Virus record (IMG/VR): IMGVR_UViG_2529293265_000015
Origin: a virus
Taxonomy: Duplodnaviria; Heunggongvirae; Uroviricota; Caudoviricetes
DNA length: 14,178 nucleotides
Reading direction: 5' to 3' (one strand)
The notes under the pieces were generated by a model. It saw only the letters and a program-made list of their open reading frames with translations, was not told the DNA's origin and made no database searches. Made by a program: the position numbers and the translations under genes. Shown piece after piece: positions 1-14,178 of this stretch (positions are counted from its first letter, which is position 1; each line of letters starts with the position of its first letter).

Positions 1-280
1 TACTGCGCATACGATTACCGGGTCATACAGGAGCAGTCTGGTCTGAAAACATCAATGTCGCGTAAAGGTAACTGTTACGACAACGCTCCGATGGAAAGCT
101 TCTGGGGAACGCTGAAAAAATGAGAGCCTGAGCTACTATCGTTTTAATAACCGGGATGAAGCCATCTCAGTAATACGGGAATACATTGAGATTTTCTACA
201 ATCGTCAGCGTCGTCACTCTCGTCTGGGGAATATCTCCCCGGCAGCCTTCAGGGAAAAATATCATCAGATGGCTGCTTAA
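1..280 (+). pseudogene. IS600 orfB transposase, 3' fragment, frameshifted
   Basis: Encodes the orfB C-terminus (...NISPAAFREKYHQMAA, stop 278..280). Relative to the full copy it has one extra A in an A-run (gctgaaaaaatgag at ~111..124, A6 vs A5), giving an in-frame TGA, plus one C>T change. Confidence 0.7.
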
Positions 281-323
281 AAAAAGAACAAATGGTAGTG
301 TCCGCTATTGCCAGTACACCTCA
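1..323 (+). mobile_element. IS600 (IS3 family), partial copy: right end only, truncated by the window edge
   Basis: 1..323 is the reverse complement of 10398..10720 of the complete copy, with 2 differences. It ends in the same terminal inverted repeat (...ccgctattgccagtacacctca at 302..323). Confidence 0.85.
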
Positions 324-489
324 GTTAGTCAGCTTCTTATCGAACTTGAGCTGAAGGATCTTAAAACAAGTTTCCATAGTGCTCCTGGATTTTCTCTTTT
401 TGGACATTGACGTCTCCACTGGTTTAAACACGGCAATGGAGACTGTGGTGAAAAGAGTTAATTCCCGGAGTGACTGGCGAATTCCAATC

Positions 490-615
490 AATGATCGGAA
501 GTATGCCAAATCGTGATCGATTGTGATGCCAAACTGTGATCGGAGATGGATGCCAAATCATGATCGATTCGAATGCCAAACTGCGATCGATTCAGATGCC
601 ATTTTGCAATCAGCG
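490..615. repeat. Array of ~5 imperfect 23-24 bp direct repeats, each containing GATC
   Basis: Repeat unit approximates ATGCCAAAYYRYGATCGRWTYR. GATC sits at 493, 515, 538, 562 and 585, a spacing of 22-24 bp. Confidence 0.8.
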
Positions 616-713
616 CCAGAACAGCAGCTGACAGGCCGTATTTGATTTTTGCGCTCATGGATATTTATCAGGATGCTACCAATGAAAGATACTGGAAAGC
701 CAACTGCAAAAAG

Positions 714-1028
714 CTAACAACCCGTAATCGAGTTATCAGAACTGTTAATTTTTATGGTATACCGCGCCTCTGAACAGGGGCGCGTTTCTGGCAACAGCTC
801 GTCCCCTTCACATAACCCGGCAGCAACATCCAAGAAGACCTGTCTGATGCTCCTTCTGGCTGCTGCCTCATAAAACTCCAGCGCGGCACCTTCAACACGG
901 TCCAGCGAGATGTCCAGGTCAAAAATTTCACCGTCAAAGCGTTTTTTGTCCCGTAACGCTAAAGTTACCGTAACTTTATTCTCAAAATTGCGGATCCCTT
1001 TCACAATCAGTTCATAGTTTTGAGTCAT
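714..1028 (-). CDS. YdfR-like small protein (104 aa) of the lysis cassette
   Basis: ORF with SD GGGGAGAG about 9 nt upstream, starting 4 nt after the holin stop. Position (holin, then ~103-aa protein) matches Qin essQ-ydfR; family assignment is from memory. Confidence 0.5.
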   Translation of the reverse strand: MTQNYELIVKGIRNFENKVTVTLALRDKKRFDGEIFDLDISLDRVEGAALEFYEAAARRSIRQVFLDVAAGLCEGDELLPETRPCSEARYTIKINSSDNSITGC

Positions 1029-1032
1029 TGAA

Positions 1033-1248
1033 TTACTCTCCCCGTGCAGCCTTACGACGGTCCTCTCTGATTTTGAAATACAGGTTAGTCAGATATGTCA
1101 GCAGCCCAAACAGCAGACTCCCCAGCACGCCTATTGCCGCCCACTGAGACGGGGAAACCCTGTCCAGCAACTGCAGGAACCAGTAGCCCGTTCCCACCGC
1201 TGACGTGGTGTATGACACACCTGTTGTGATTTTTTCCATCTGGTACAT
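1033..1248 (-). CDS. Class II holin / pinholin, phage 21 S-like (71 aa)
   Basis: [71 protein letters not shown] closely resembles the S21 pinholin, including the dual-start Met1/Met4 motif and two TM segments. SD GGGAGACGGGG lies upstream of the ATG at 1246..1248. The 106-aa track ORF has a spurious N-terminal extension. Confidence 0.85.
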
Positions 1249-1278
1249 ACCCCGTCTCCCGTTATCCGGAAGCTGACA

Positions 1279-1312
1279 ACAATAAAAAAGCCACCAGTTA
1301 AGTACTGATGGC
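1279..1312 (-). terminator. Intrinsic terminator-like hairpin between nanS-p and the holin
   Basis: On the minus strand: GCCAUCAG-uacuuaa-CUGGUGGC (8-bp stem with one G.U) followed by UUUUUUAUU. Confidence 0.5.
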
Positions 1313-1397
1313 TCTGATAACTCATGCAGGCATCTCAGACGACCCACTGACACTACCGGTGAGTTTAACGATACCTTCCATTTGGCTGGCTCACTTT

Positions 1398-3251
1398 TTA
1401 TGATGATGCCGGTGCATTTATCTCCAGCACCAGACTTTCTATCTCAACGCCATACGCTGCATTTTTGGTAATATCCGTCAGCGTCAGCGCATTCAGCCCC
1501 AGTGTCAGACTGTCTTTTATGACCTGGAATGCCGGGCCAGCCACTCCATTCAGTTTCGGAGTAACCGTGGCACTGCCGGCGGTGAACACCAGCTCCAGCG
1601 TCAGCCAGTCGTTACTGTAATTCCCGAACTCGCCCAACTTTGTGTTTCCTGCTTTCTTGTGATGCATCAGATTCAGTTTGCCGTCTGTGGTCTGGGTGAA
1701 GAACGACATCAGGAACGGGTTACCAGTCCCGGTCATCGCCACGACGTCAGGTAACGCTACATCGGTATACAGATAAATTCCCAGACCGAACTGGTTGTTG
1801 GTCAGTGCGCCTGACAGTCGAAACTTACAGCTCAGTCTGCCACCCCGTGTCAGCAGGGAGACTGCGTCATCCACCGGGCGCGTCAGGGACCAGGCTTTAT
1901 TGCTCTGCTTGGTGATCTTAAATACACCATCTGACAACTGAACTCCGCCATTCTTAATGCTCCAGCCCTGCGCAGCAGCGTCTCCGGCTGTCGGCAACAG
2001 GGAGATTGTGCGTATGGATGCATCTTCAGACGGCCCCGATGGCGTGTCGCCGCCGGGCGAGGGTTTGATTTCCGGTGCCTTACCACTAATGAAGGCTAAG
2101 GTGCGACCGGCTACGTTCAGAATAGCAGTTGCCATACGATCGGGAATAATGCCACGACGCGCCCATGAGCTGAAATGCGTCGGGCGATTTGATGATACCC
2201 AGTTTTTGTTCGTTCGGGATGCCGAACCGTAATAACCAGACCCGGCAATATCAGGATCTTCTGACGGGTTGTTTGTCGGTGTATTAACTCCGCTACCATC
2301 GGTCATAAAGGGAACAAAATAAATCTGCTGGGATTCTTTACCTTTATATGCACCATATACCACTTCATATTGCGTACCGTGTTCTTGTTTCCACGCGTAT
2401 GTCGTGTCGCCACAAATCCAGGGGACTGATGCCGGACTTCCACCGTGACACTGCGCCGCCAGCCCGGCAAGGTCAGCACGGAACTGCTGTACCATTGCAA
2501 GAAATGCTGCTGGCTGCTGGGCGTAACTGGCATTCGTCATATCGAATTCCCCCTGCATCCAGCATATCGCCAGCAAAACGTTTTTCGGGTTTTTCTGCAA
2601 TGCTGCCTTCGTGCGGAAAAGCAGATCCTGATATAACGGCTTACCCACTCCCCAGCGAGCCGAATCCTGACTGGCCCCCGTGGACTCGCTGAATGTCCCC
2701 TCCGTGCCCTGGGTGAATGCCGAACCACCACAACAGCATGGTACCAGCAGGATCCCCGCATTATTAGGGATATACGGAAGCAGTTTTTTGGCAATATGTA
2801 AGCCCTGTCCGACACAGCCGTACTGCCCTTTGCTCAGGTCAGCCCGGGGATGGTTAATCGTACTCATATCCTGAACATCATGCAGACAATGGTCAGCAGG
2901 AATGATGTCGTTAAATACGCATACTTCACCACCGGGAGTCACTGTGTTACGACGGGCCAGTTGCTTAATGCGCGGATGGGGCGCATCGTATGAATCCGGA
3001 AGCGGAAGACCTTCACCGTAAGCCATGGCATTGGATTGCCCGGCCAGTACGATGACGTAGTACCACTCCGGCTCAGTTGCACCACTGACGACCACATCAC
3101 CTTCTGCTGCAATCGCCTGCATCAGGGTATAAGGGGTTATGGCCACCGGACTACCAAACGGCTGCCAGCCCTCCTTCAGTTTTTGTGTCAGTCGTTTCGC
3201 AAGGTCTGACGGCGATGCCGCCCTGACCACGTCATAGTGTTTAAATGCCAT
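1398..3251 (-). CDS. nanS-p: Prophage sialate O-acetylesterase, NanS-p-like (617 aa)
   Basis: N-terminus [21 protein letters not shown]... and the SGNH/SASA motif [14 protein letters not shown] are typical of the phage-encoded NanS-p esterases found downstream of stx in Stx phages. SD GGGAGG upstream of the ATG at 3249..3251. Confidence 0.85.
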
Positions 3252-3445
3252 GAATCCTCCCGGCCGGGATAATATTGTGAGTAAAATAAGGAGCGGGCTG
3301 AAGTCCGGAAGTTACAGGACAATGGCAGAAGAGAGACGACAGCCCGCAATTCGAAAAAGACCGCGCAGTTGCGCAGAGTGATTACTATGGGGTATTATTC
3401 GCCAGCTGAAATATTACTTCACGTTTTATTGTTTATTCCTTGCCG

Positions 3446-3474
3446 CCCGCGTCTCCCAGCGCGGGCTTTTTTTG
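3446..3474 (+). terminator. Plus-strand intrinsic terminator-like hairpin with no plus-strand gene upstream
   Basis: GCCCGCG-tctcccag-CGCGGGC followed by TTTTTTT on the plus strand. On the minus strand the same hairpin is not followed by a U-run. Confidence 0.5.
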
Positions 3475-3476
3475 CC

Positions 3477-3780
3477 CACAAGAAAACCCCTCCGGAGAGG
3501 GGCTAAAGCCGCGTATCTGTATCATCATGCACATGGTGCCGGGTGCCTCCCGGTGAGTTCAGCCCGGTGCCACTAAACCCGCGTCATTCTCGTTTTGATA
3601 ATCAGAGATTATACCGTCACCAGTCGCCCCTCCGCTCAGGGGGATTCACCATGCGAAATTTTTTTAACAAATGCCCAGTCTGACAGGCAACTGTCAACTT
3701 ACTGAATTGTGAGCAACATAGCATTTAACGGGGAACCTGTTTTCTGCAGTAAAAAGGCCCACCGGAGCGGATGGGCCTGG
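3477..3780. repeat. Non-coding tandem module, copy 1 (~304 bp)
   Basis: Aligns with 3965..4216 at roughly 75-80% identity by eye. Shared blocks: cccctccggagaggg hairpin, gccgggtgcctcccggtga, cccctccgc.cagggggattcaccatgc, ttttaacaaa, caactgtcaac, ctgaattgtgag, and a terminal hairpin plus U-run on the minus strand (3751..3777). No ORF of 60 aa or more on the sense strand. Confidence 0.75.
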
Positions 3781-3964
3781 AAGGATAGCGGTCATGTGAT
3801 GCCGGTTTCCCGGTAACTCAGCACCGGTATCTGAGTCAACGTTTTCTCTACTGGGTCATTTCCGATACGCCCTGCCTGCTGACAGGCTTTCATCACATCT
3901 GAAAATATAGCACCCTGACTGATACTGTAGTACCTAAGGTTCCAGAAACTGTGATGTATCCGGC

Positions 3965-4216
3965 ACAGAAAAGCCCCTCCGGAGAGGGCTGGAGAGTGGC
4001 GCTATGTGCCATTGCATGATGCCGGGTGCCTCCCGGTGAATTCAGTACCAGCACCTGAATCCGCGATTATCCCATATACCTACTCGCTGATTGCCCCTCC
4101 GCACAGGGGGATTCACCATGCCAGTTTCTTTTAACAAACTCCCCGCAAAACAGACAACTGTCAACCGTCTGAATTGTGAGACATTTAAAAAAAAGGCCCG
4201 CAAAAGCGAGCCAGGG
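3965..4216. repeat. Non-coding tandem module, copy 2 (~252 bp)
   Basis: Second diverged copy of the 3477..3780 module. Minus-strand terminator GGCUCGC-uuuu-GCGGGCC followed by U8 (plus 4187..4212) lies immediately downstream of the tRNA cluster. Confidence 0.75.
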
Positions 4217-4226
4217 AAAATAAGTG

Positions 4227-4303
4227 TGGCGCGTTGTACTGGATTCGAACCAGTGACCGATTGCTTAGAAGGCAATTGCTCTGTCCGGCTGAGCTAACAA
4301 CGC
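4227..4303 (-). tRNA. tRNA-Arg (anticodon UCU)
   Basis: Hand-folded cloverleaf on the minus strand: GCGTTGT acceptor pairs with ACAACGC, anticodon loop CTTCTAA, T-loop TTCGAAT, 3' GCCA. Confidence 0.8.
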
Positions 4304-4316
4304 ATGATGCAGATAA

Positions 4317-4393
4317 TGGACCGCCATCGGGGACTTGAACCCCGCGCAGCCAGCTTCGAAGGCTGGCGCTCTTTCCTGATGAGCTAATGGCGG
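4317..4393 (-). tRNA. tRNA-Arg (anticodon UCG)
   Basis: Hand-folded cloverleaf: acceptor CCGCCAT/ATGGCGG, anticodon loop CTTCGAA, T-arm CGGGG-TTCAAGT-CCCCG, 3' UCCA. Unusual C1-G72 pair and U73 discriminator. Confidence 0.7.
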
Positions 4394-4400
4394 TATGTGA

Positions 4401-4476
4401 TGGTGGCCCTTGCTGGATTTGAACCAGCGACCTGGCGATTATGAGTCGCTCGCTCTCACCACTGAGCTAAAGGGCC
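4401..4476 (-). tRNA. tRNA-Ile2/Met (anticodon CAU), ileX/ileZ-like
   Basis: GGCCCTTTAGCTCAGTGGT...CTCATAAT...GGTTCAAATCC...AAGGGCCACCA closely resembles E. coli ileX. Same Ile-Arg-Arg order as the tRNA cluster of Stx phages. Confidence 0.8.
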
Positions 4477-4516
4477 GGGAGCCGCATAATAACGACGCGT
4501 AATTAATTCTTCAATA

Positions 4517-5575
4517 TCATCCGTTCTGGCTGACTAAATCCTGTACTTCCCGAACCGTCTGCTCAAAACGTTCAGTCTCCAGCTCAACGCCAATTGCACG
4601 ACGCCCGAGCGCCAGTGCCGCTTTCACTGTCGAACCCAACCCCATGAAAAAATCTGCAATCAGGTCACCCGGACGACTGCTAGCGCTGATTATCTGCTGC
4701 AGCATTTCTGCCGGTTTTTCGCACGGATGTTTCCCGGGATAGAACTGCACCGGTTTATGCGTCCACACATCGGTATACGGCACCTGCACCGTCACGCCAA
4801 AATACCGCCGCAGATGTTTATATTCACTCAGCAGCTCCGCATACTGCCGGTTCAGTGAGGTATACGTATCCACCAGCTGGTGGTGGAGCTTTTCCAGTTC
4901 ACCACGCCGATGCTTCTCTTCTGCCACCCGGGCAAACAGCGCCTGTAATTTCAGATAATCGCTTTCATTCGGCAACTGCCACTGACCGGCACTGAACCAG
5001 TGCGACACCATGTTTTTCTTTCCTGTGGCATCTGCAATCTGTTTTGCCGTTATCCCCAGGGCAGCTCGCGCATCACGAAAGTAAGAAATCAGCGGGGCCA
5101 TCACATGCTGTTTCAGTGCACTGCCCTTCGCCGCATACCCGGCATCTTTCGGACGATACGGCCCCTGATAATGTTCCGCGAACAGAATGCGCTCTGTGGC
5201 GGGGAAATACGCCCGCAGGCTTTCCTTGTTGCATCCGTTCCAGCGTCCGGACGGCTTCGCCCAGATAATATGGTTCAGCACACTGAAGCGTTCACGCATC
5301 ATGATTTCGATATCAGATGCCAGGCGATGACCACAGAACAGGTAAAGACTTCCGGCAGGTTTCAGCACCCGCCAGAACTGCGCCAGACACTGGTCCAGCC
5401 ACTTCAGGTAATCATCGTCGCCCTTCCACTGGTTATCCCAGCCCTCAGGCTTCACTTTAAAGTACGGCGGGTCCGTGACTATCAGGTCAACAGAATTTTC
5501 GGGTAACGACCGGATAAATTCCAGGCAGTCGGCGTTGATTAACTCACAACTGGATATTTTTACAGTATTAAGCAT
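4517..5575 (-). CDS. DNA methyltransferase, beta-class (N6-adenine or N4-cytosine), solitary
   Basis: 352-aa ORF with the N-terminal catalytic motif LIVTDPPYF and a C-terminal AdoMet motif DFFMGLGST; this motif order defines beta-class amino-MTases. No restriction endonuclease gene is adjacent. Target specificity is unknown. Confidence 0.8.
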   Translation of the reverse strand: MLNTVKISSCELINADCLEFIRSLPENSVDLIVTDPPYFKVKPEGWDNQWKGDDDYLKWLDQCLAQFWRVLKPAGSLYLFCGHRLASDIEIMMRERFSVLNHIIWAKPSGRWNGCNKESLRAYFPATERILFAEHYQGPYRPKDAGYAAKGSALKQHVMAPLISYFRDARAALGITAKQIADATGKKNMVSHWFSAGQWQLPNESDYLKLQALFARVAEEKHRRGELEKLHHQLVDTYTSLNRQYAELLSEYKHLRRYFGVTVQVPYTDVWTHKPVQFYPGKHPCEKPAEMLQQIISASSRPGDLIADFFMGLGSTVKAALALGRRAIGVELETERFEQTVREVQDLVSQNG

Positions 5576-5710
5576 GGATCATTAAGCCTGTCTCTGATAG
5601 GCTCATTCTGCTTTTGCGCAAAGCAGTGGGCCTGAGGTTTGCTTGTGAACCCAACGCATGAGCAGATGGCTGGTGGGTGCCCCTAACACCCACCAGCCGC
5701 CCATTTACCA

Positions 5711-5739
5711 CAAATAAAAAAGCCTTCACTGCGGAAGGC
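5711..5739 (-). terminator. Intrinsic terminator of the small HTH gene
   Basis: On the minus strand: GCCUUC-cgcagu-GAAGGC followed by UUUUUUAUUUG. It overlaps the stop codon of the 65-aa ORF. Confidence 0.6.
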
Positions 5740-5923
5740 GTCTGTAACAACCGAACTGATAGTCTGCCAGACCCGCCATAACCAGCTGGGTCAGTATTAA
5801 CTGGCAGCGTTCGCGTGAAAGGTAAGTATTCTGCGCTATCTCCCCGACTGTCGCCGGTTCGGTAACGCTTAATTCATTAAACACCACTCTGGCGGTTTCT
5901 GTCATATCCTGCTGTTTTAGCAT
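5726..5923 (-). CDS. Small hypothetical protein (65 aa), possibly a helix-turn-helix regulator
   Basis: ATG preceded by AAAGGAAAAG. The segment TVGEIAQNTYLSRERCQLILTQL looks HTH-like. It has its own terminator. Confidence 0.4.
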   Translation of the reverse strand: MLKQQDMTETARVVFNELSVTEPATVGEIAQNTYLSRERCQLILTQLVMAGLADYQFGCYRRLPQ

Positions 5924-6043
5924 GTCTTTTCCTTTTCCGGTTAACGTGACACACCAATAACTCTTGTCGAAAAAGCCAGCAAGCTGAAAGACAGGTATTC
6001 ACCGCCACCAGCGCGTTTACTGTACTGACGCGATTTCAGTCAT

Positions 6044-6065
6044 AAAAAACCCGCTCGGCGGCGGG
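6044..6065 (-). terminator. tR'-like intrinsic terminator of the short late leader transcript
   Basis: On the minus strand: CCCGC-cgccga-GCGGG followed by UUUUUU, about 65 nt downstream of the predicted pR' start. Confidence 0.65.
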
Positions 6066-6114
6066 TTGTAGAAACTCTTCTAACGTCAGGCATAAAACGC
6101 CCATCGTTATGACG

Positions 6115-6142
6115 AATTTACCACAGATTCCGGAAAAATCAA
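6115..6142 (-). promoter_or_regulatory. Late promoter pR'-like, with promoter-proximal pause element
   Basis: Immediately downstream of the Q stop on the minus strand: TTGATT, 16-nt spacer, TAAATT, then cgtcatAACGATGGG. This resembles lambda pR' (TAAATT -10 and AACGATGGG early-transcribed pause element). Confidence 0.6.
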
Positions 6143-6147
6143 CCTTG

Positions 6148-6969
6148 TTACCTAGTTACCTTTTTTAACTGCCGCTCAGCCCATGCTTCTTCAATATCAA
6201 ACCGGGTCACCAGCGCATCATAAAATTTCTTAACTGTTTTTTCCCATGACGCGCGTGTTATCTGGTTTGTCACCTCGCATATAGCATTAAATGCCTCCGT
6301 TGATGGTAGTCTTTCATAGCCACGACCACCACAACGCTGGCAGTCTCTGATAACAGGCATACCACGTTTTACCGACTCTTCACGATGAATGGCGACACCA
6401 CGCCCACGGCAATCCTTACAGGCGGTGGAAACCTCACCCTTTCCGCCACACTCCGGACAGGCAACTTTTACCACCTCCCTGACTTTTTTCCATTCTTCCC
6501 AGTAAGACGGATACACACCTTTCGTACACTTTGCCCATACCGGCGGCTTACCATCCGGATACTGGATCTTGTTTGTAAAAACCTCGCTTTCAATAAATTT
6601 TTTTCCGTGACAGCAGGGGCACTGTTTTTTGCTCGCCGCGCTACGGGCATAATCTTCAAACGCATACGAAGCCATAATACGCATCACTGCCGGTTTTATT
6701 TCTGCCGGGAGTTTTCTTAACGCCGCCACGCGATCACACCGACTGAGTGCATATTCTGTCAGCAATTCTGTTGCCCGCTCTCTGTCATTCATACTAATGC
6801 CCATTTTCCCAAGGAACGCAGAAACCCCCATCTCAGCCCGATTCTGTGTCATGCCCTGCGCGGCCATCACATCAGTGATACTCAGCGCATCTTTCGACGT
6901 TGAGGCCGATGCATCAGTCAGGCCGGGGGATTTTGGGGAGTAGTATTTCGGTAAATCTTCCAGTTTCAT
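6148..6969 (-). CDS. Late-gene antitermination protein Q (273 aa, zinc-finger type)
   Basis: Sits between rusA and the pR'/tR' pair. Several CxxC pairs (CPCCHGKK, CPECGGKG, CKDCRGRG, CQRCGGRG). Start overlaps the rusA stop (ATGA). Confidence 0.65.
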   Translation of the reverse strand: MKLEDLPKYYSPKSPGLTDASASTSKDALSITDVMAAQGMTQNRAEMGVSAFLGKMGISMNDRERATELLTEYALSRCDRVAALRKLPAEIKPAVMRIMASYAFEDYARSAASKKQCPCCHGKKFIESEVFTNKIQYPDGKPPVWAKCTKGVYPSYWEEWKKVREVVKVACPECGGKGEVSTACKDCRGRGVAIHREESVKRGMPVIRDCQRCGGRGYERLPSTEAFNAICEVTNQITRASWEKTVKKFYDALVTRFDIEEAWAERQLKKVTR

Positions 6970-7346
6970 TTTTTGACCTGCCCTTCAAGCATTATGGGAT
7001 AAATCTTCACCCCCAGACGTCCACCAGATACTGGCTGAGCACGAACGATATTGATTTCATCAAACTGCTCATCGTCCATTAGCAACCCCGCATGCGTCAG
7101 CGCATCCAGCGGCGCTTTCAGAATATTGTCCAGGTCACGGCGGCGCTTATCCGGTGGTTCTGCAATAATTTTTATTGCCAACCTTCCGGACAGGCTTAAT
7201 TTCAGCCGCTGCTGGCGAACAATAAGCGCCACTGCCCGGCGATAACGCTCCCCGGCTTTTGATACAAAATATGTGCTGCCACGACGACGCCAGTAAGTGT
7301 TCACCGTCGGCGGGTAAGGTAAAACAAATTCTATGCGCTCGGTCAT
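6966..7346 (-). CDS. rusA: Holliday-junction resolvase RusA
   Basis: 126 aa with PPTVNTYWRRRG near the N-terminus and the RRRDLDN catalytic motif; canonical nin-region position upstream of Q. Confidence 0.85.
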   Translation of the reverse strand: MTERIEFVLPYPPTVNTYWRRRGSTYFVSKAGERYRRAVALIVRQQRLKLSLSGRLAIKIIAEPPDKRRRDLDNILKAPLDALTHAGLLMDDEQFDEINIVRAQPVSGGRLGVKIYPIMLEGQVKK

Positions 7347-8405
7347 TTATGCTTTCCACTTCAGAACACCCGAATTTCTCGCGTGCATTAAAAAACGAAT
7401 CAGCAACAACAGCTGACTGCCGTGTTTCTCTTCAAAATCTTTTACTCCGGCATGTAGTTCGTTACGGCATTTACGGCATAACGGAATAACAAACAAATCA
7501 TCAGCCTTTGTTCCCATCCCTCCCAGTCCATGACCAATGATGTGATGCGGATCATCTGCCTGATTGCCACACGTCATGCATTTCTGCGTTTTTACCCAGC
7601 GCGTGTATACAGGCATCTCTTCCCGTTGTGATTTCTGGCGCTGGAGATACTGAGCCGGTGACTCCGGATCAACGGCAATGCTGACCACCGTCTTTTCCTG
7701 TGGTGGGTTCTGTTGCTGGTGGACGTGAGGCAGTAACGCAATATTTTTTGTGCGCTGCTTCAGTATGCTGGTGGCTGTCTGCTCTCCCGGTATGATGTCG
7801 CTTTCACTGTACACAGAGCGAATTTTTTCCGCACGCAACCCCAGCGAACGACGTAATACCGCTTCCGGTAGCGCGTCCGCCACCTGATTGCGGACCGCCC
7901 ACCAGGATAATTCAGCCAGAGATAATTCACGCTCCTGCGTACCGCTTATTGCGTGACCGATGACGTCAATCATCCATGCTGACAGGTTTTGATGAGCAAG
8001 TTGCTCGAGTGATTCGGATGTCTGGTCACGCAGCTGGTTGTCGCAGTGCCAGCACAACACCATTGCGCCGGTACCATAACGGTGAATGACGGTTTCGCTG
8101 TGATGATAATCGCCGTGTGGCCACTGGCAGGATTTAATATGGCGCAACAGCCAGTCAGACAATGCACCAGCACCACCAGCAGCACGAATCACCCGTGCGT
8201 TACTGAAAAACGGCAGCAATGTTTTGTCTTCCACCAGCGGCTGGCGAGCGGCAGGAACGACCCCGGACGGCAGATTACGCATGCTTTTTGGTTCCGGCTC
8301 CACCAGTATTCTGCCGTTATGGAATGCTGACATTGATTCACGGCCTGGCTTAACGATAACCAGACCGAGTTCCGGTACCAGAACAGGTCGAAGTAATACC
8401 CGCAC
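7347..8405 (-). CDS. DUF968 / YdfU-like prophage protein (352 aa)
   Basis: GTG start preceded by GGAGG. C-terminal Cys/His-rich segment CMTCGNQADDPHHIIGHGLGG...PLCRKCRNELH (HNH-like). Same position as Qin ydfU, upstream of the Q region. Confidence 0.6.
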   Translation of the reverse strand: MRVLLRPVLVPELGLVIVKPGRESMSAFHNGRILVEPEPKSMRNLPSGVVPAARQPLVEDKTLLPFFSNARVIRAAGGAGALSDWLLRHIKSCQWPHGDYHHSETVIHRYGTGAMVLCWHCDNQLRDQTSESLEQLAHQNLSAWMIDVIGHAISGTQERELSLAELSWWAVRNQVADALPEAVLRRSLGLRAEKIRSVYSESDIIPGEQTATSILKQRTKNIALLPHVHQQQNPPQEKTVVSIAVDPESPAQYLQRQKSQREEMPVYTRWVKTQKCMTCGNQADDPHHIIGHGLGGMGTKADDLFVIPLCRKCRNELHAGVKDFEEKHGSQLLLLIRFLMHARNSGVLKWKA

Positions 8406-8406
8406 A

Positions 8407-8685
8407 TTACCTCCAGATCCGTTGCTGGAATGTGCGGGACGGACGCGTTGGCCGTTCGGAGTAAGGGAGCCTGACGGAGATTATCCAGTGACGGTAGTCG
8501 AGGCTAAGGGCTTTTTTAACCTCGCATCCGCGCCTGCGGTAACACTGAATGAGCCATTCGGCCTGTTCTTCAGTGCATGGGGGATGCTGGTACCAATCAG
8601 ATTTAAATGCGTGAGAGCGCCGCCCGTGCCTGCTGGCAAAGACGGCTGAATTATCAGAATTGTGTAGTCTGGAATTTTGCGCCAT
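8407..8685 (-). CDS. Hypothetical protein (92 aa), translationally coupled to the DUF968 gene
   Basis: ATG with SD GGAGAAA about 6 nt upstream; its stop lies in the SD region of the downstream gene. Family not recognised. Confidence 0.4.
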   Translation of the reverse strand: MAQNSRLHNSDNSAVFASRHGRRSHAFKSDWYQHPPCTEEQAEWLIQCYRRRGCEVKKALSLDYRHWIISVRLPYSERPTRPSRTFQQRIWR

Positions 8686-8751
8686 CGGCTTTCTCCGGTG
8701 GCACAGTGTTACTCAACAGGGGTTCAGCCCTGCGCTGAATTGTAGATGAAT

Positions 8752-9012
8752 TCACTCATCTTCAAAAGCAGAAAAACCAGCCTTAATCCCAGCTTCTTTC
8801 AGAGACGGCAACGATGTGACAAATTCATTTGCACGCGAAATAAAACCATCCGTCACAAGCCCATCCACAAAATGAATTAACGCAGCTCCACTCTTCCTTT
8901 GTTGAGACTGTAAACATTTAATACGGCAGTGGCTGACAATAGCGCCATTCTCAACGCGCACAGTATAGAGGCCATCTTCACTAAAAATTTCACGTAATTC
9001 TTCGATTTTCAT
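8752..9012 (-). CDS. Hypothetical protein (86 aa)
   Basis: Likely real start is the ATG at 9010..9012 (SD GGAAGGA upstream), one codon inside the track ORF's TTG. Occupies the position of rem in Qin; identity not established. Confidence 0.45.
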   Translation of the reverse strand: MKIEELREIFSEDGLYTVRVENGAIVSHCRIKCLQSQQRKSGAALIHFVDGLVTDGFISRANEFVTSLPSLKEAGIKAGFSAFEDE

Positions 9013-9140
9013 CAACAGAATCCTTCCAGATAAATAGCACTCCCCTGTTCGGGGTCCATCCCTCTTCTCCCTGCGCGCTACTTAAGTATTTTTGATTCTA
9101 TTCCGGCACCATCTAAAACTTCAAACGCGTTGAAAATAAA

Positions 9141-9163
9141 AACAAAAACCCGCCGAAGCGGGT
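9141..9163 (-). terminator. Intrinsic terminator of the hok transcript
   Basis: On the minus strand: ACCCGC-uucg-GCGGGU (UUCG tetraloop) followed by UUUUUGUUUUUAUUUU. Confidence 0.7.
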
Positions 9164-9232
9164 TAAGTGTGGGTGCATTGAGGATGCCTGACCCATCAGA
9201 GGTGGCGAGGGATTTCTCCCCCGCCTGGTCTC

Positions 9233-9388
9233 TTACTCCTCAGGTTCGTAAGCTGTGAAGACAGCGACCTCCGTCTGGCCGGTTCGAATTCGTACCTCGC
9301 AGAGGTCTTTCCTCGTTACCAGTGCCGTCACTATGACGGTTAAACAGATGACGATCAGGGCGATTAACATCGCCTTTTGCTGCTTCAT
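9233..9388 (-). CDS. hokD: Hok-family type I toxin, HokD/RelF-like (51 aa)
   Basis: MKQQKAMLIALIVICLTVIVTALVTRKDLCEVRIRTGQTEVAVFTAYEPEE is a single-TM Hok-family peptide; by recall it matches E. coli HokD (RelF). SD AAGGAG lies 7 nt upstream of the internal ATG at 9386..9388. The track ORF 9233..9445 is an in-frame upstream extension. Confidence 0.85.
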   Translation of the reverse strand: MKQQKAMLIALIVICLTVIVTALVTRKDLCEVRIRTGQTEVAVFTAYEPEE

Positions 9389-9679
9389 AGCCTGCTTCTC
9401 CTTGCCTTTCGGCACGTAAGAGGCTAACCTAGATTTGCCGTTCATAGATTGAGCCTCAGATTAATGTTAAGCGTCTTGCCGGACGCGTAATGTTAACTGG
9501 GGCTTTTCTCTATCTGCCTTTTGGTGTTCATGCCTGAGACAGATAGCCTCAAGCACCCGCTGCAATTCTACTTAACTCTCCTTTTCCCGCAAACCGTTTT
9601 TATCCCCAGCGGCAAATCGAATACACCACCAGCGCCACCGCCATCGCAATTCCTACCGTTGTTAATGCTTCAGGCCAGG

Positions 9680-10024
9680 TCATCGTAAAATATCCTCCAC
9701 GCTTATCAGTCCGTTCCGCTCCAGATAACTCATCGCCTTATCCGGTAATTTGCAGTCTGGCTTCGCTTTTCTCAGTTGCCAGGTTAACTGCTTTACCAGC
9801 ATGGTTAACTCATCGACCAGACGCTGATATCCCACTGGTTTGTATTCATGCAATTTACCGGCTGGCTCTGCTGCCAGCGATACCAGTGCGATTTCCAGAA
9901 CAGCAATATCCATCTTATATGTGCGGATGATGTCATGGTCGATTGTGCCCGGTATGCACAGTCTCTGTGCTTCAATAGTCTCCTCTGCGTGAGCTATTAA
10001 CTGCTCTCTGGTAAAAGTCGTCAT
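9680..10024 (-). CDS. Hypothetical protein (114 aa), paralog of the upstream 55-aa protein
   Basis: Start ATG overlaps the upstream stop (ATGA); SD AAGGGG. N-terminal half aligns with the 55-aa protein (MTTxTxE... and IALxSLxAEP). Confidence 0.55.
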
Positions 10025-10188
10025 GCCGTAGCCCCTTCTTGATATTTTTCAAACCAGAACACAACCGGCTCTGCTTCCAGCGATGCCAGCGCAATCCGTG
10101 CCAGTTCCATTTGTTCACCACGGGTAAGCCCGTTTTCAAGCGGGTTTTTAATGAACAATTCAATACGTTCTTTGGTAATAGTGGTCAT
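10021..10188 (-). CDS. Hypothetical small protein (55 aa), not in the ORF track
   Basis: Hand translation: [55 protein letters not shown]. Strong SD AAGGAG 8 nt upstream; stop overlaps the start of the 114-aa gene. Confidence 0.55.
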
Positions 10189-10198
10189 GTGTTACTCC

Positions 10199-10397
10199 TT
10201 AACCCGCAGTGCTTTCAACTGATGAGGGGAACAAAATCTTTTCATCAAACCCTGCATTCATATCATGAACAGCAACACACCAATCCATCGACGAACGATT
10301 ATCAAGAGCCTCCATGATTTCATCCATGCGGCGTAGGTCATACAGGTAAATGCTTTTATCGCCAATGGTGTAAAAGCCAATTTTTTTCGGTGATGGA
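10199..10397 (-). pseudogene. 3' fragment of an unknown gene, 5' end removed by the IS600 insertion
   Basis: The reading frame stays open upstream into the IS600 terminus (the track ORF's start codon at 10429 is inside IS600). Ends ...FDEKILFPSSVESTAG. Confidence 0.45.
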
Positions 10398-10440
10398 TGA
10401 GGTGTACTGGCAATAGCGGACACTACCATTTGTTCTTTTT

Positions 10441-11259
10441 TTAAGCAGCCATCTGATGATATTTTTCCCTGAAGGCTGCCGGGGAGATATTCCCCAGACG
10501 AGAGTGACGACGCTGACGATTGTAGAAAATCTCAATGTATTCCCGTATTACTGAGATGGCTTCATCCCGGTTATTAAAACGATAGTGGCTCAGGCTCTCA
10601 TTTTTCAGCGTTCCCCAGAAGCTTTCCATCGGAGCGTTGTCGTAACAGTTACCTTTACGCGACATTGATGTTTTCAGACCAGACTGCTCCTGTATGACCC
10701 GGTAATCGTATGCGCAGTACTGTGAACCTCGATCAGAGTGGTGGATTAGCCCGGCAGGTGGGCGCTGGCTCCTGAGCGCCATAAACAGGGCTTTACCTGT
10801 CAGCTCTTTTGTCATGCGCTCTCCCATGGCGTAGCCGACAATTTCGCACGTATAAACATCTTTGATGCCAGCGAGGTACAACCATCCCTCCTGTGTGGCA
10901 ACATACGTCAGGTCCGCCACCCAGACCTGATTTGGTGCTGTAGGAGCGAACGTCTGGTTCAGCAGATTTGGCGCAACTGGCAGATTGTGGTTCGAGTTCG
11001 TAGTCGCTCTGAACTTGCGTTTCTGCTTACAGTGTAGCCTTAGCTCCTTACGAAGACGTGCCAGTCGGTCACGACCAACGATGATGCCATTCTCTGCCAG
11101 CTCCGTCTGGAGCCGCCGGGTTCCATATGTTTCGCGAGTGCGGATATGTGCCACCTTAATCTCCAGTTTTAGCCGCTCATCACTTTGTTTTCTGTCTGAG
11201 GGTTCATGCTGTACCCAGTTGTAATAACCGCTCCTGGATACACCAAATACCTGACACAT
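10441..11259 (-). CDS. IS600 OrfB (transposase catalytic domain), expressed as OrfAB by -1 frameshift
   Basis: 272-aa frame with the integrase/DDE-type core (...HSDRGSQYCAYDY...NAPMESFWGTLKNE...). The orfB frame runs upstream to overlap the orfA 3' end. Confidence 0.85.
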   Translation of the reverse strand: MCQVFGVSRSGYYNWVQHEPSDRKQSDERLKLEIKVAHIRTRETYGTRRLQTELAENGIIVGRDRLARLRKELRLHCKQKRKFRATTNSNHNLPVAPNLLNQTFAPTAPNQVWVADLTYVATQEGWLYLAGIKDVYTCEIVGYAMGERMTKELTGKALFMALRSQRPPAGLIHHSDRGSQYCAYDYRVIQEQSGLKTSMSRKGNCYDNAPMESFWGTLKNESLSHYRFNNRDEAISVIREYIEIFYNRQRRHSRLGNISPAAFREKYHQMAA

Positions 11260-11294
11260 CGCTTCAATGGGAAATTGTTGTCGCCATTGTTCGA

Positions 11295-11597
11295 TTAACG
11301 CGTATTTTTCAGCGACTCCTGTGCAAAATACGCTGTTGCTTTTTTTAATATATCTCGCTCAAGGCGAGCTTCATTTAACGCCTTACGCAGTTGCAGAATT
11401 TCAGATTCCAGTTCAGCCACCGTGCGGGAACCAGGAGTACCGAGCCCTTTTCTGGCGGCGGTAACCCATTGTCCTAAAGTGCCTTCAGGAAGAGATAATC
11501 GGGAAGCGCCTTCACTGATCGAAAGTTGATTTTCAGGAACCGTTCTGACAGCTTCGGCTTTGAACTCTTTAGAGTAACGTTGGGTTTTTCTGCTCAT
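11295..11597 (-). CDS. IS600 OrfA (100 aa)
   Basis: MSRKTQRYSKEFKAEAVRTV...LERDILKKATAYFAQESLKNTR, recognised from memory as IS600 ORF1. Confidence 0.85.
   Translation of the reverse strand: MSRKTQRYSKEFKAEAVRTVPENQLSISEGASRLSLPEGTLGQWVTAARKGLGTPGSRTVAELESEILQLRKALNEARLERDILKKATAYFAQESLKNTR
11339..11346 (-). other. Programmed -1 ribosomal frameshift site of IS600
   Basis: AAAAAAAG on the minus strand, at the end of orfA where the orfB frame overlaps. Confidence 0.6.
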
Positions 11598-11661
11598 TAT
11601 TAGCTCCTTCTGATGCCATTCTATTTCAGGAAGGAGTGTCCGTTAAACTCAGGCTACCTCA

Positions 11662-12051
11662 AAAATTAAAGGGCAGGTTGTTGAACTTGTACGTCTGAGC
11701 GGTCGCGAGACGTTGCGGCAACTGGAAGCCAAGACAGGTGCGACAAGATATCTGATGAGTGTTCTCGCCAGAGAGCTGGTTGCCAGTGGCGATGTATACA
11801 ACTCTGGTTACGGGTTATTCCCGTCTGAACAGGCGCGTAAGGACTGGCAAAACGCCCGCAAAAAACTCTCAAGGGCAAATCTGAAGAAACCATCTGTGGT
11901 TGATCCTGACCTTATCTGGTCATTACCAGACGGAGAAATACGCCGCTACGACAGGCGTCAAAACATAATCTGTAGCGAGTGCCGGAAGAGCGAAGCTATG
12001 CAGCGTGTACTGGCTTTCTATCAGGGTAATTTTCAGAAGGTGCTGTTGTGA
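11662..12051 (+). pseudogene. Unknown gene, 5'-truncated by IS600 (at least 129 codons remain)
   Basis: The plus-strand frame is open from the IS600 boundary (SKIKGQVVELVRLSGRETLRQLEAKTGATRYLMSV...QGNFQKVLL) to the stop at 12049..12051. The track places a TTG start at 11713; the first in-frame ATG is at 11755. Confidence 0.45.
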
Positions 12052-12178
12052 GCCAAATTAACAATCGGAACTTCGTGAAGAGAAAGCATAATCCAAAATC
12101 TGAATAATTAAGTTCAGCACTGTGGTGATGCTGCCAACTTACTGATTTAGTGTATGATGGTGTTTTTGAGGTGCTCCA

Positions 12179-12454
12179 GTGGCTTCTGTTTCTATCAGCT
12201 GTCCCTCCTGTTCAGCTACTGACGGGGTGGTGCGTAACAGCAAAAGCACTGCCGGACATCAGCGCTATCTCTGCTCTCACTGCCGTAAAACATGGCAACT
12301 GCAGTTCACTTACACCGCTTCTCAACCCGGTACGCACCAGAAAATCATTGATATGGCCATGAATGGCGTTGGATGCCGGGCAACTGCACGCATTATGGGC
12401 GTTGGCCTCAACACGATTTTACGTCACTTAAAAAACTCAGGCCGCAGTCGGTAA
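12179..12454 (+). CDS. insA: IS1 InsA (91 aa)
   Basis: [20 protein letters not shown]...[12 protein letters not shown] with a GTG start. Confidence 0.85.
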
Positions 12455-12876
12455 CCTCGCGCATACAGCCGGGCAGTGACGTCATCGTCTGCGCGGAAAT
12501 GGACGAACAGTGGGGCTATGTCGGGGCTAAATCGCGCCAGCGCTGGCTGTTTTACGCGTATGACAGTCTCCGGAAGACGGTTGTTGCGCACGTATTCGGT
12601 GAACGCACTATGGCGACGCTGGGGCGTCTTATGAGCCTGCTGTCACCCTTTGACGTGGTGATATGGATGACGGATGGCTGGCCGCTGTATGAATCCCGCC
12701 TGAAGGGAAAGCTGCACGTAATCAGCAAGCGATATACGCAGCGAATTGAGCGGCATAACCTGAATCTGAGGCAGCACCTGGCACGGCTGGGACGGAAGTC
12801 GCTGTCGTTCTCAAAATCGGTGGAGCTGCATGACAAAGTCATCGGGCATTATCTGAACATAAAACACTATCAATAA
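12373..12876 (+). CDS. insB: IS1 InsB frame (expressed as InsAB' by -1 frameshift)
   Basis: 167-aa frame ...[21 protein letters not shown]...[18 protein letters not shown]; the A6C slippery motif ttaaaaaactc is present. Confidence 0.85.
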
Positions 12877-12899
12877 GTTGGAGTCATTACCTACATCGG

Positions 12900-13671
12900 G
12901 GTGATGCTGCCAACTTACTGATTTAGTGTATGATGGTGTTTTTGAGGTGCTCCAGTGGCTTCTGTTTCTATCAGCTGTCCCTCCTGTTCAGCTACGGACG
13001 GGGTGGGTGCGTAACAGACAAAAGCACTGCCGGACATCAGCGCTATCTCTGCTCTCACTGACCGTAAAACATGGCAACTGCGGTTCACTTACACCGCTTC
13101 TCAACCCGGTACGCACCAGAAAATCATTGATATGGCCATGAATGGCGTTGGATGCCGGGCAACTGCACGCATTATGGGCGTTGGCCTCAACACGTATTTT
13201 ACGTCACTTAAAAACTACAGGCCGCAGTCGGTAACCTCGCGCATACAGCCGGGCAGTGACGTCATCGTCTGCGCGGAAATGGACGAACAGTGGGGCTATG
13301 TCGGGGCTAAATCGCGCCAGCGCTGGCTGTTTTACGCGTATGACAGTCTCCGGAAGACGGTTGTTGCGCACGTATTCGGTGAACGCACTATGGCGACGCT
13401 GGGGCGTCTTATGAGCCTGCTGTCACCCTTTGACGTGGTGATATGGATGACGGATGGCTGGCCGCTGTATGAATCCCGCCTGAAGGGAAAGCTGCACGTA
13501 ATCAGCAAGCGATATACGCAGCGAATTGAGCGGCATAACCTGAATCTGAGGCAGCACCTGGCACGGCTGGGACGGAAGTCGCTGTCGTTCTCAAAATCGG
13601 TGGAGCTGCATGACAAAGTCATCGGGCATTATCTGAACATAAAACACTATCAATAAGTTGGAGTCATTACC
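12900..13671 (+). mobile_element. IS1, degenerate 772-bp copy, in tandem with the first (8-bp spacer tacatcgg)
   Basis: Same terminal sequences as copy 1, but several indels and substitutions in the insA region and at the frameshift window. Confidence 0.85.
13132..13656 (+). pseudogene. Truncated InsA'-InsB fusion frame in degenerate IS1 copy 2
   Basis: Indels (cacgtattttacg...ttaaaaactacagg versus cacgattttacg...ttaaaaaactcagg) put the insA 3' part and insB in one DNA frame, while the insA 5' part carries frameshifts. Confidence 0.6.
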
Positions 13672-13714
13672 CGGCACTGTAAATAAAATTTAATCCTTAA
13701 CTGGAGGTATATCT

Positions 13715-13927
13715 ATGTCAAATACACAGAAAATTATTAACACTGAAAAATATAACGAGTGGGTGAAAAAATTCTCTGAGCAGATTTTTAAAATTACTGG
13801 CGACGAGAATGTGGCAAAAAATGAATTAGAACCGTGGACACCTGAAGGAAACGCACCAAATTATTGCTGGTGGGAGGTTGATCCGGTTGATGCTGCAAAT
13901 GAAGCCATGAGTTACCACAACGATTAA
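13715..13927 (+). CDS. Hypothetical acidic small protein (70 aa)
   Basis: ATG preceded by SD ctGGAGGtatatct. AT-rich; sequence MSNTQKIINTEKYNEWVKKFSEQIF...EPWTPEGNAPNYCWWEVDPVDAANEAMSYHND. Family not recognised. Confidence 0.5.
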   Translation: MSNTQKIINTEKYNEWVKKFSEQIFKITGDENVAKNELEPWTPEGNAPNYCWWEVDPVDAANEAMSYHND

Positions 13928-13959
13928 TGTCGGGAGGCCGCCCGAAAGGGCGGTAAGAA

Positions 13960-14178
13960 ATGACTACATTATTCAGAAAAGAATATCCGCAAAAAAGTAG
14001 GGCGACAGAATTTTTGTTTCTCATTCTGTTTATCGTATTGATGATACCGATATCCCCTCTAATTTTTGTCTGGGCAATCGGGAAAATAATTGAGCCAGTT
14101 ACTGAATTGTATACCGACGTTGTATGGGCGTCGTTCAACACACTGCACAATAAAATTAATCCGTATAAGGAAAACTGA
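13960..14178 (+). CDS. Hypothetical small membrane protein (72 aa, one predicted TM helix)
   Basis: ATG at 13960 with a weak SD (taagaa). Hydrophobic core FLFLILFIVLMIPISPLIFVWAIG; stop at the window end. A GC-rich hairpin with GAAA loop (ggccgccc-gaaa-gggcgg) separates it from the upstream gene. Confidence 0.45.
   Translation: MTTLFRKEYPQKSRATEFLFLILFIVLMIPISPLIFVWAIGKIIEPVTELYTDVVWASFNTLHNKINPYKEN

Follow-up and report, generated by a model that had tools for sequence, protein, structure and literature searches.

The window, the 14178-bp stretch of DNA analysed here, contains a complete 1264-bp copy of IS600, a member of the IS3 family, at positions 10398–11661 with its transposase encoded on the minus strand. 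To the left of this copy, positions 324–10397 (minus strand) hold the late-regulatory part of a prophage in its native orientation, as judged from gene content and comparison; its genes include hok/sok, DUF968, RusA, a Q-type antiterminator, tRNAs, a DNA methylase, a SASA esterase and a holin. This part is edged on both sides by mutually inverted IS600 copies, the far edge being formed by the terminal 323 bp (IRR end) of a second copy at positions 1–323 on the plus strand, inverted relative to the copy at 10398–11661. To the right, positions 11662–14178 (plus strand) form a prophage segment that is inverted relative to other prophages and comprises the 3′ part of a DUF977 gene, IS1 insertion(s), a 213-bp gene (13715–13927, plus strand) and DUF4014 (13960–14178, plus strand). 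Two tandem IS1 copies (12124–12891 and 12900–13671, together spanning 12124–13671 on the plus strand) lie inside this segment, with the flanks CAGCACTGT and CGGCACTGT.

The IS600 copy is matched over 100% of its length, at 99.8% identity, by copies annotated as 'IS3-like element IS600' in complete Escherichia coli genomes. Its IRR end (10398) faces a truncated 264-bp gene and its IRL end (11661) faces DUF977. The termini, TGAGGTGTACTGGCAATAGCGGACAC and TGAGGTAGCCTGAGTTTAACGGACAC, are imperfect terminal inverted repeats of the TG...CA form; both ends start with TGAGGT and have CGGACAC in common further inward. These repeats were read directly and are too imperfect for the seed of a generic inverted-repeat finder. 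Two minus-strand genes fill the element: orfA (11295–11597; 100 aa), which matches HTH_Tnp_1 (Pfam, E 2e-19), and orfB (10441–11259; 272 aa), which matches the DDE integrase core rve (Pfam, E 9e-26) and also rve_3, rve_2 and HTH_21. Frameshifting in the IS3 family is the basis for predicting an OrfAB fusion in IS600. Here the two genes are arranged in 0/−1 phases with a slippery A-run for OrfAB, namely a slippery-type A7G run at 11339–11346 within the orfA/orfB overlap, and sister genomes carry a gene call for a 385-aa fused OrfAB. By analogy with the family, we infer that OrfAB would arise by frameshifting at the A7G run. An Rfam scan of the window at gathering thresholds returned no IS3-type frameshift element inside IS600. 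The matches that the scan did return, STnc100 (two copies), sok and three tRNAs, all lie outside the element. This copy is intact and probably active. It has no role for the prophage today; it is a mobile element that also offers portable homology on which further rearrangement can take place.

The 3-bp flanks of IS600 are unequal, GGA on the left (10395–10397) and AAA on the right (11662–11664), and do not form a 3-bp direct duplication of the target. Two unequal 3-mers alone are weak evidence, as 63 of 64 random pairs differ; the mismatch is made solid by comparative data, namely a control copy flanked by TCC and a search of 5426 genomes, both described below. Left of the element, positions 10199–10397 (minus strand) are the 3′ 199 bp (residues 24–87) of a hypothetical nin-region gene of 264 bp (87 codons plus stop), which is of the WP_000224233 type in E. 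coli and has no Pfam match. On the minus strand, the frame ending at 10199 has no stop before IS600 and extends 32 bp inside the element, so that a 76-aa hybrid ORF results (10199–10429). Right of the element, a plus-strand frame is open from 11662, the first base past IS600, to a stop at 12051. Pfam and comparison with E. coli prophages identify it as a DUF977 gene lacking its first 11 codons: residues 12–140 are present, and positions 13–134 of the 134 in the Pfam model are matched. On comparison with the intact gene, AAA would be the target triplet within an A6 run at DUF977 codons 11–12. Both truncated genes point away from IS600. Direct reading of the frames thus bears out the original prediction that a complete IS600 without a target-site duplication sits between two ORFs that have lost their 5′ ends, are open into the IS termini and are not halves of one gene, being the 264-bp gene and DUF977.

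In two independent E. coli prophages with the intact order, these genes lie on one strand: cro, ydaT, replication genes, DUF977, the 213-bp gene, DUF4014 and the 264-bp gene, followed by a 168-bp gene, a 345-bp gene, hokD, DUF968, RusA and Q. Intact lambdoid prophages have DUF977 and the 264-bp gene on one strand, separated by about 0.6 kb. The window, by contrast, splits this order between strands, with the remnant of the 264-bp gene, the 168-bp gene (10021–10188), the 345-bp gene (9680–10024), hok/sok, DUF968, RusA and the antiterminator on the minus strand, and the DUF977 remnant, the 213-bp gene and DUF4014 on the plus strand. The truncated genes are therefore neighbours from one operon, the piece between them having been flipped. 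They had been predicted to be unrelated, which does not hold: both belong to the same prophage module. Judged by these gene orders, the segment from inside DUF977 to the IS600 insertion point, about 1.03 kb without IS1, is inverted.

For the DNA beyond the window we relied on near-identical genomes. Ten places carrying the 76-aa hybrid ORF were fetched (L003–L012); one of them, in CP032523.1 (L004, Shigella sonnei), is 99.95% identical to positions 200–12891 of the window. CP060117 is S. sonnei UKMCC1015, and CP022457.1 is listed among S. sonnei strains. The DNA past 14178 is known from such genomes, from which the window's own genome is set apart by at least its second IS1 copy. Past 14178, the sister genomes continue for another 69 bp: a single intergenic base, then the initial 68 bp (the head) of the 264-bp gene. 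The original prediction had placed the missing 5′ part of the left ORF beside another IS600 copy; the gene head was indeed found, with no IS600 next to it. The last 3 bp of this head are a copy of GGA (L004 6963–6965), on the far side of the inverted segment. On L001, the window's left flank reaches 6798 and the 5′ piece of CP032523.1 begins at 6796, an overlap of exactly GGA whose length is that of the IS600 target duplication (3 bp). This exact sharing of GGA argues that the two copies of the IS600 target duplication now stand on opposite sides of the inverted segment, the GGA at 10395–10397 being, on the sister-genome comparison, the copy that stayed beside the 3′ part. The 23-aa N-terminal piece, now within a fusion ORF, and the 64-aa piece in the window together restore the 87-aa protein exactly. 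These comparisons indicate that IS600 inserted into the 264-bp gene with duplication of GGA.

We then reconstructed the ancestral sequence: IS600 and the IS1 copies were removed, each duplication was reduced by one copy, and the segment was flipped back. The resulting 2124 bp align in a single piece with at least 11 E. coli genomes (100% cover, 97.7–97.9% identity) and at no less than 80% cover with 48 genomes, so the comparison with relatives proposed for rebuilding the ancestral arrangement yielded a collinear one. The rearrangement junction originally proposed in place of a simple insertion is upheld by the native order, the split GGA and this reconstruction, and is the end of an inversion. 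An inversion between two IS copies exchanges target triplets; the partner of GGA was located at the far end of the segment. One of the two split duplications, that of GGA, is documented; the partner of AAA and the missing 36 bp of DUF977 were not located. No second, oppositely oriented IS600 was found at the other end of the segment, where all sister genomes that keep this end have an IS-free joint between int and GGA. Among the sister loci examined, no genome has an intermediate or pre-inversion state. Four exact-pattern scans of genome_contigs and metagenome_contigs for the DUF977 5′ end joined to an IS600 end, controls for the window's own junction included, were all empty; they say nothing about the fate of the left arm, because the control junction is also absent from those collections. 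We consider it likely that IS600, residing in a decayed lambdoid prophage at ompW in an S. sonnei-type chromosome, marks one end of a small inversion.

Two candidates for related arrangements were rejected. Complete E. coli genomes were searched for the arrangement of the window and none has it: only H61 (E. coli O121) reaches 80% cover or more, and there IS600 interrupts a DUF4406 gene close to a different DUF977 gene, which is another junction. A second IS600 about 70 bp past the right end of the window, which the inversion model predicted, is ruled out by the IS-free int fusion in the sister genomes.

Recombination between the IS600 copies of two similar prophages, producing a large inversion or translocation, could also have brought a right segment from another prophage to this IS600. 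S. sonnei genomes do rearrange at the IS600 of 10398–11661, as CP045932.1 illustrates with another partner flank, CTA, and several similar lambdoid modules exist in E. coli and Shigella. Moreover, the DUF977 allele is unequal in its identity to two E. coli prophages (99.8% and 92.9%), with the rest of the segment above 99% to both, a pattern of mosaicism that would suit such an exchange. Nevertheless, both pieces of the 264-bp gene join at one and the same nucleotide, overlap by 3 bp and together restore the exact protein. Such a fit would be expected only of pieces on either side of a single IS600 insertion event. In addition, the segment lies 1.8 kb from the int and ompW of the same prophage site. 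We regard an origin in two prophages as quite improbable, and the local inversion remains our preferred account.

The other end of the inverted segment leads to the site of the missing left arm. In L004 and six other loci, the DNA past the window consists of the head of the 264-bp gene, about 105 last codons of a tyrosine integrase and ompW-yciC-yciB-yciA, with no IS between the gene head and int. At this deletion joint, about 69 bp outside the right end of the window, the int 3′ end runs directly into GGA and the gene head. Homology to int stops at L004 6962, up to which L004 is 97.4% identical to the int 3′ end and ompW end of E. coli O55:H7, and the gene head with its GGA starts at L004 6963. 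Intact int reads ...GATGACACCACA followed by TCATCT, and the intact 264-bp gene reads ...GGTGAT followed by GGACAGCG; at the joint, ...GATGACACCACA runs directly into GGACAGCG, the int side ending in ...CACCACA. The endpoint of the deletion is thus exact at the former IS600 terminus and target triplet, with the IS removed. Comparison of the joint with intact int and the intact gene revealed no microhomology, which leaves microhomology-mediated end joining unsupported as its origin. The joint creates a 128-aa fusion ORF of gene head and int tail and forms no functional operon.

The host of these events is a lambdoid prophage at ompW, in which the int 3′ end adjoins ompW and the Q/RusA/DUF968/holin late module is present. 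An intact ompW prophage is found in E. coli O55:H7 RM12579 (NC_017656.1), in which ompW is followed on one strand by int, xis and exo, then cI, and the other strand carries cro, ydaT, O, P ... hokD, DUF968, RusA and Q. The two prophages share the attachment region, the int 3′ end (97.4% identity) and the order of modules; in S. sonnei, the stretch that starts with the int 5′ part and runs through the DUF977 5′ end is gone, and an IS21-family element and IS600 have made a further cut in the lysis region. In near-identical genomes, the locus lacks all sequence from the int 5′ part through the first 36 bp of DUF977, which by comparison with the O55:H7 prophage amounts to about 9–10 kb of excision, recombination, immunity and replication genes. 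Sequence comparison therefore indicates a left arm that is missing, with a joint exact to the IS600 target triplet. The absent target duplication and the diverging truncated ORFs had rightly flagged an IS-mediated rearrangement, and the predicted loss of immunity, replication and most integration functions is confirmed in the near-identical genomes; the reading that the arm was deleted at this IS600 is not quite right, the joint being free of IS and outside the window.

A pure IS600-mediated adjacent deletion would have removed the left arm outward from the IS end and left the DNA beyond as the right flank. It would account for the absence of the arm at the locus in sister genomes, and IS-adjacent deletions are common in Shigella (PMC7373316). 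Such a deletion would, however, preserve the orientation of the surviving DNA, whereas the right flank here is the 1 kb that directly precedes in the operon, reversed; the head of the 264-bp gene, DUF4014 and the 213-bp gene, although due to be lost first, are still there; and the real deletion joint has no IS and is situated outside the window. As an explanation of the IS600 junction itself, we judge it very improbable.

A simple insertion of IS600 whose 3-bp duplication was never made or was mutated away deserves practically no credence: the element is complete with intact ends, but its flanks belong to separate genes, one on each strand, each runs on into its own 5′ part in intact prophages, and the flanks as joined in the window (300 + 300 bp) are contiguous in 0 of 5426 complete E. 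coli genomes (best cover 50%), 4203 of which contain at least one of the two 300-bp flanks. Nor do we see any realistic chance that contigs were misjoined across the repeated IS600, in spite of the nearby tandem IS1 region, since identical junctions occur at nine of the ten places in independent complete genomes and the hybrid ORF, which is specific to the left junction, is found in 795 blocks of an assembly collection, 83 of them with contigs of more than 1 Mb. GGA adjoins the IRR end in all ten sister loci and AAAATTAAAGGG adjoins the IRL end in nine of them; the junction is therefore real and widespread, and is no assembly artefact. The same prophage supplies a control for the expected duplication: in eight of the ten sister loci an extra IS600 is present as TCC/IS600/TCC. 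The window holds the empty site of this insertion, with one TCC near 3782–3786.

On the account we favour, local inversion followed by loss of the left arm, IS600 first entered the 87-codon nin-region gene, duplicating GGA. The inversion, and likewise the IS-free joint, implies a second IS600 copy; it would have lain in the opposite orientation within the A6 run of DUF977, with AAA as its target. The segment may have been inverted by homologous recombination between the two IS600 copies after a separate insertion, or in one step, by intramolecular transposition from the end of an IS or IS dimer. Inversion is a Shapiro-type outcome of intramolecular transposition, and dimers of the IS3, IS30 and IS21 families have reactive IRR-IRL junctions. 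Such IS-dimer inversion would predict the intermediate proposed here, an inverted IS pair around an inverted segment with old and new triplets swapped; in this locus the second copy is missing today, and the end product is the same as that of two insertions and RecA recombination. Either route would have given the order left arm–AAA/IS600/GGA–inverted segment–AAA/IS600/GGA–right part. Because the segment was inverted, IS600 now has GGA and the 3′ part of its target gene on one side, and AAA and the 3′ part of DUF977 on the other.

The second IS600 would later have been lost together with the left arm of about 9–10 kb, comprising the int 5′ part, xis, immunity and replication genes and the first 36 bp of DUF977. 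This may have been a single event, in which strand transfer from the IS end reached int and not the opposite IS end, or an IS-adjacent deletion followed by simple excision. A deletion ending exactly at the IS terminus would leave the IS-free joint of the int 3′ end to GGA and the gene head beside ompW. Such joints are produced when IS3-family elements are excised by their transposase along with flanking DNA. The mechanism of this deletion is the weakest part of the account, and we infer it by analogy with studies of Shiga toxin-producing strains (STEC) and with IS3 experiments.

IS600 is a demonstrated substrate of IEE, which is reported to delete regions flanking an IS, as stated where PMC9397093 cites Kusumoto et al. 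2011. Strand transfer that misses the opposite IS end explains end-anchored deletions in the 'sloppy' model for IS629, and copy-out-paste-in alone is not expected to delete donor DNA (bioRxiv 10.1101/2023.06.07.543989). The joint resembles products of IEE-enhanced excision of IS3-family elements in being IS-free and placed at the former IS600 terminus, with the IS and adjacent DNA gone. However, IEE is described on SpLE1-type elements of STEC, the only source of the literature descriptions found, whereas the host here is S. sonnei; in addition, IEE biochemistry uses microhomology and the present joint has none. Insertion–deletion–excision with IS3 leaves IS-free joints in which distant sequences are joined with almost no trace of the IS (Kanai et al. 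2022, PMC8860574). The joint described here likewise merges distant sequences, into the fusion ORF of gene head and int tail, but that work used a laboratory system supplied with IEE whereas this is a natural fossil whose order of events is proposed from its sequence. A more specific reading, which we hold to be rather unlikely, is that the joint records a transposase-mediated event that excised IS600 along with about 10 kb of flank, by ectopic strand transfer without microhomology, in S. sonnei. If this were true and S. sonnei were without iee, it would point to an IEE-independent route, or to an unrecognised helper, for exact excision-deletion by IS3-family elements, and such a scarless route would feed silently into the reduction of Shigella genomes.

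IS600 is among the five IS types that have expanded in S. sonnei, the others being IS1, IS2, IS4 and IS911 (Hawkey et al. 2020, PMC7373316). As in the IS-bounded rearrangements of Shigella (PMC7373316), IS600 acts at this locus as portable homology and as a disrupter of genes, leaving pseudogenes and rearranged, decayed prophage DNA. The present case differs from these in that the inversion is local and very small (about 1 kb), a single IS is left so that the arrangement is locked, and the split 3-bp duplication permits a base-exact reconstruction. The expansion of IS600, IS-mediated inversions and deletions in Shigella and excision-deletion by IS3-family elements are all established; the locus is a clean instance of them and no new kind of element. 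Its value is modest: it offers a base-exact fossil of a multi-step IS history and possibly a natural IS-free, IS-anchored deletion. The ompW prophage remnant of S. sonnei is non-inducible because it lacks intact int, xis, repressor and replication genes. As the IS-free joint illustrates, a deletion driven by an IS need not retain any IS at the site, and estimates of genome decay based on IS are conservative for this reason. In some strains this IS600 is still a substrate for recombination and can therefore mislead assembly and structural typing.

The IS1 insertion in the inverted segment varies in its own right. Most sister genomes have a single copy against the two in the window, and the tandem region appears assembly-sensitive, with 1, about 1.55 or 2 copies across genomes. 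The second IS1 copy of the window holds clustered indels.

A partial second IS600 occupies positions 1–323, where the window begins within the element and its IRR end lies at 323. This copy is inverted relative to the IS600 at 10398–11661, so the 10-kb prophage remnant is flanked by two IS600 copies in inverted orientation whose IRR ends both point inward. The partial copy is placed within the terminal 300 bp or so of an IS21-family element (324 to about 638), whose end shares 95% identity with istA-adjacent ends in E. coli. Given that the IS21-family element in turn breaks the prophage lysis region near position 606, in the lysozyme gene, the left end consists of nested IS insertions.

About 1–390 bp past the window's right end, at 6644–7030 of the corresponding S. 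sonnei locus (L004, CP032523.1), lies a 128-aa fusion ORF that is the product of the IS-free deletion joint beside ompW. It combines codons 1–23 of the 264-bp gene, the hypothetical gene cut by IS600, with the last 105 or so codons of the prophage integrase; it keeps the catalytic-tyrosine region motif (...LLGHSNQKMTDIYNDVRG...) and received a gene call in some assemblies.

The same prophage varies between strains. Eight of the ten sister S. sonnei loci carry an extra IS600 with a clean TCC target duplication, for which window positions 3782–3786 represent the empty site; its absence from the window's genome marks a strain-level IS600 polymorphism within one prophage. Between hokD and the DUF968 gene, the loci are polymorphic for an indel: a 250-bp stretch (8675–8924), in which a small Rem-family (PF27490) ORF was called, is present in the window and in two sister loci (L004 and L009) and absent from three others (L003, L007 and L012). 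Moreover, the locus has been rearranged again in some S. sonnei genomes (at position 8769 of L011, 8215 of L008 and 6493 of L005). The break in L008 falls within IS1 and is followed by Mu-like com/mom genes, and that in L005 falls near the ompW 3′ end (the att region) and is followed by phage tail-fibre genes. In CP045932.1, another partner flank, CTA, was found at the IRL end of the studied IS600.

Two IS1 copies (12124–12891 and 12900–13671) stand in tandem in the inverted segment. The 8-bp spacer between them, TACATCGG, matches neither flank of the array (CAGCACTGT and CGGCACTGT). In most sister genomes the site holds a single IS1; the count is about 1.55 in L003 and L012. Within the first 330 bp or so of the second copy, indels and substitutions occur in clusters. 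This variation reflects either a true tandem IS1 polymorphism or a long-read assembly problem.

Our search of complete E. coli genomes also returned an IS600 in E. coli O121 (H61; NZ_CP119441.1, 3193860–3195656) that has another DUF977 gene some 140 bp away. This element, apparently located inside a DUF4406 gene, was rejected as an instance of the studied junction; there, IS600 inserted independently into the same prophage module.

Typical lambdoid late-region cargo survives in the remnant, all on the minus strand: two copies of the STnc100 sRNA family, three tRNA genes downstream of the Q-type antiterminator, and the sok antisense RNA adjoining hok (3474–3683, 3961–4150, 4230–4476 and 9383–9558).
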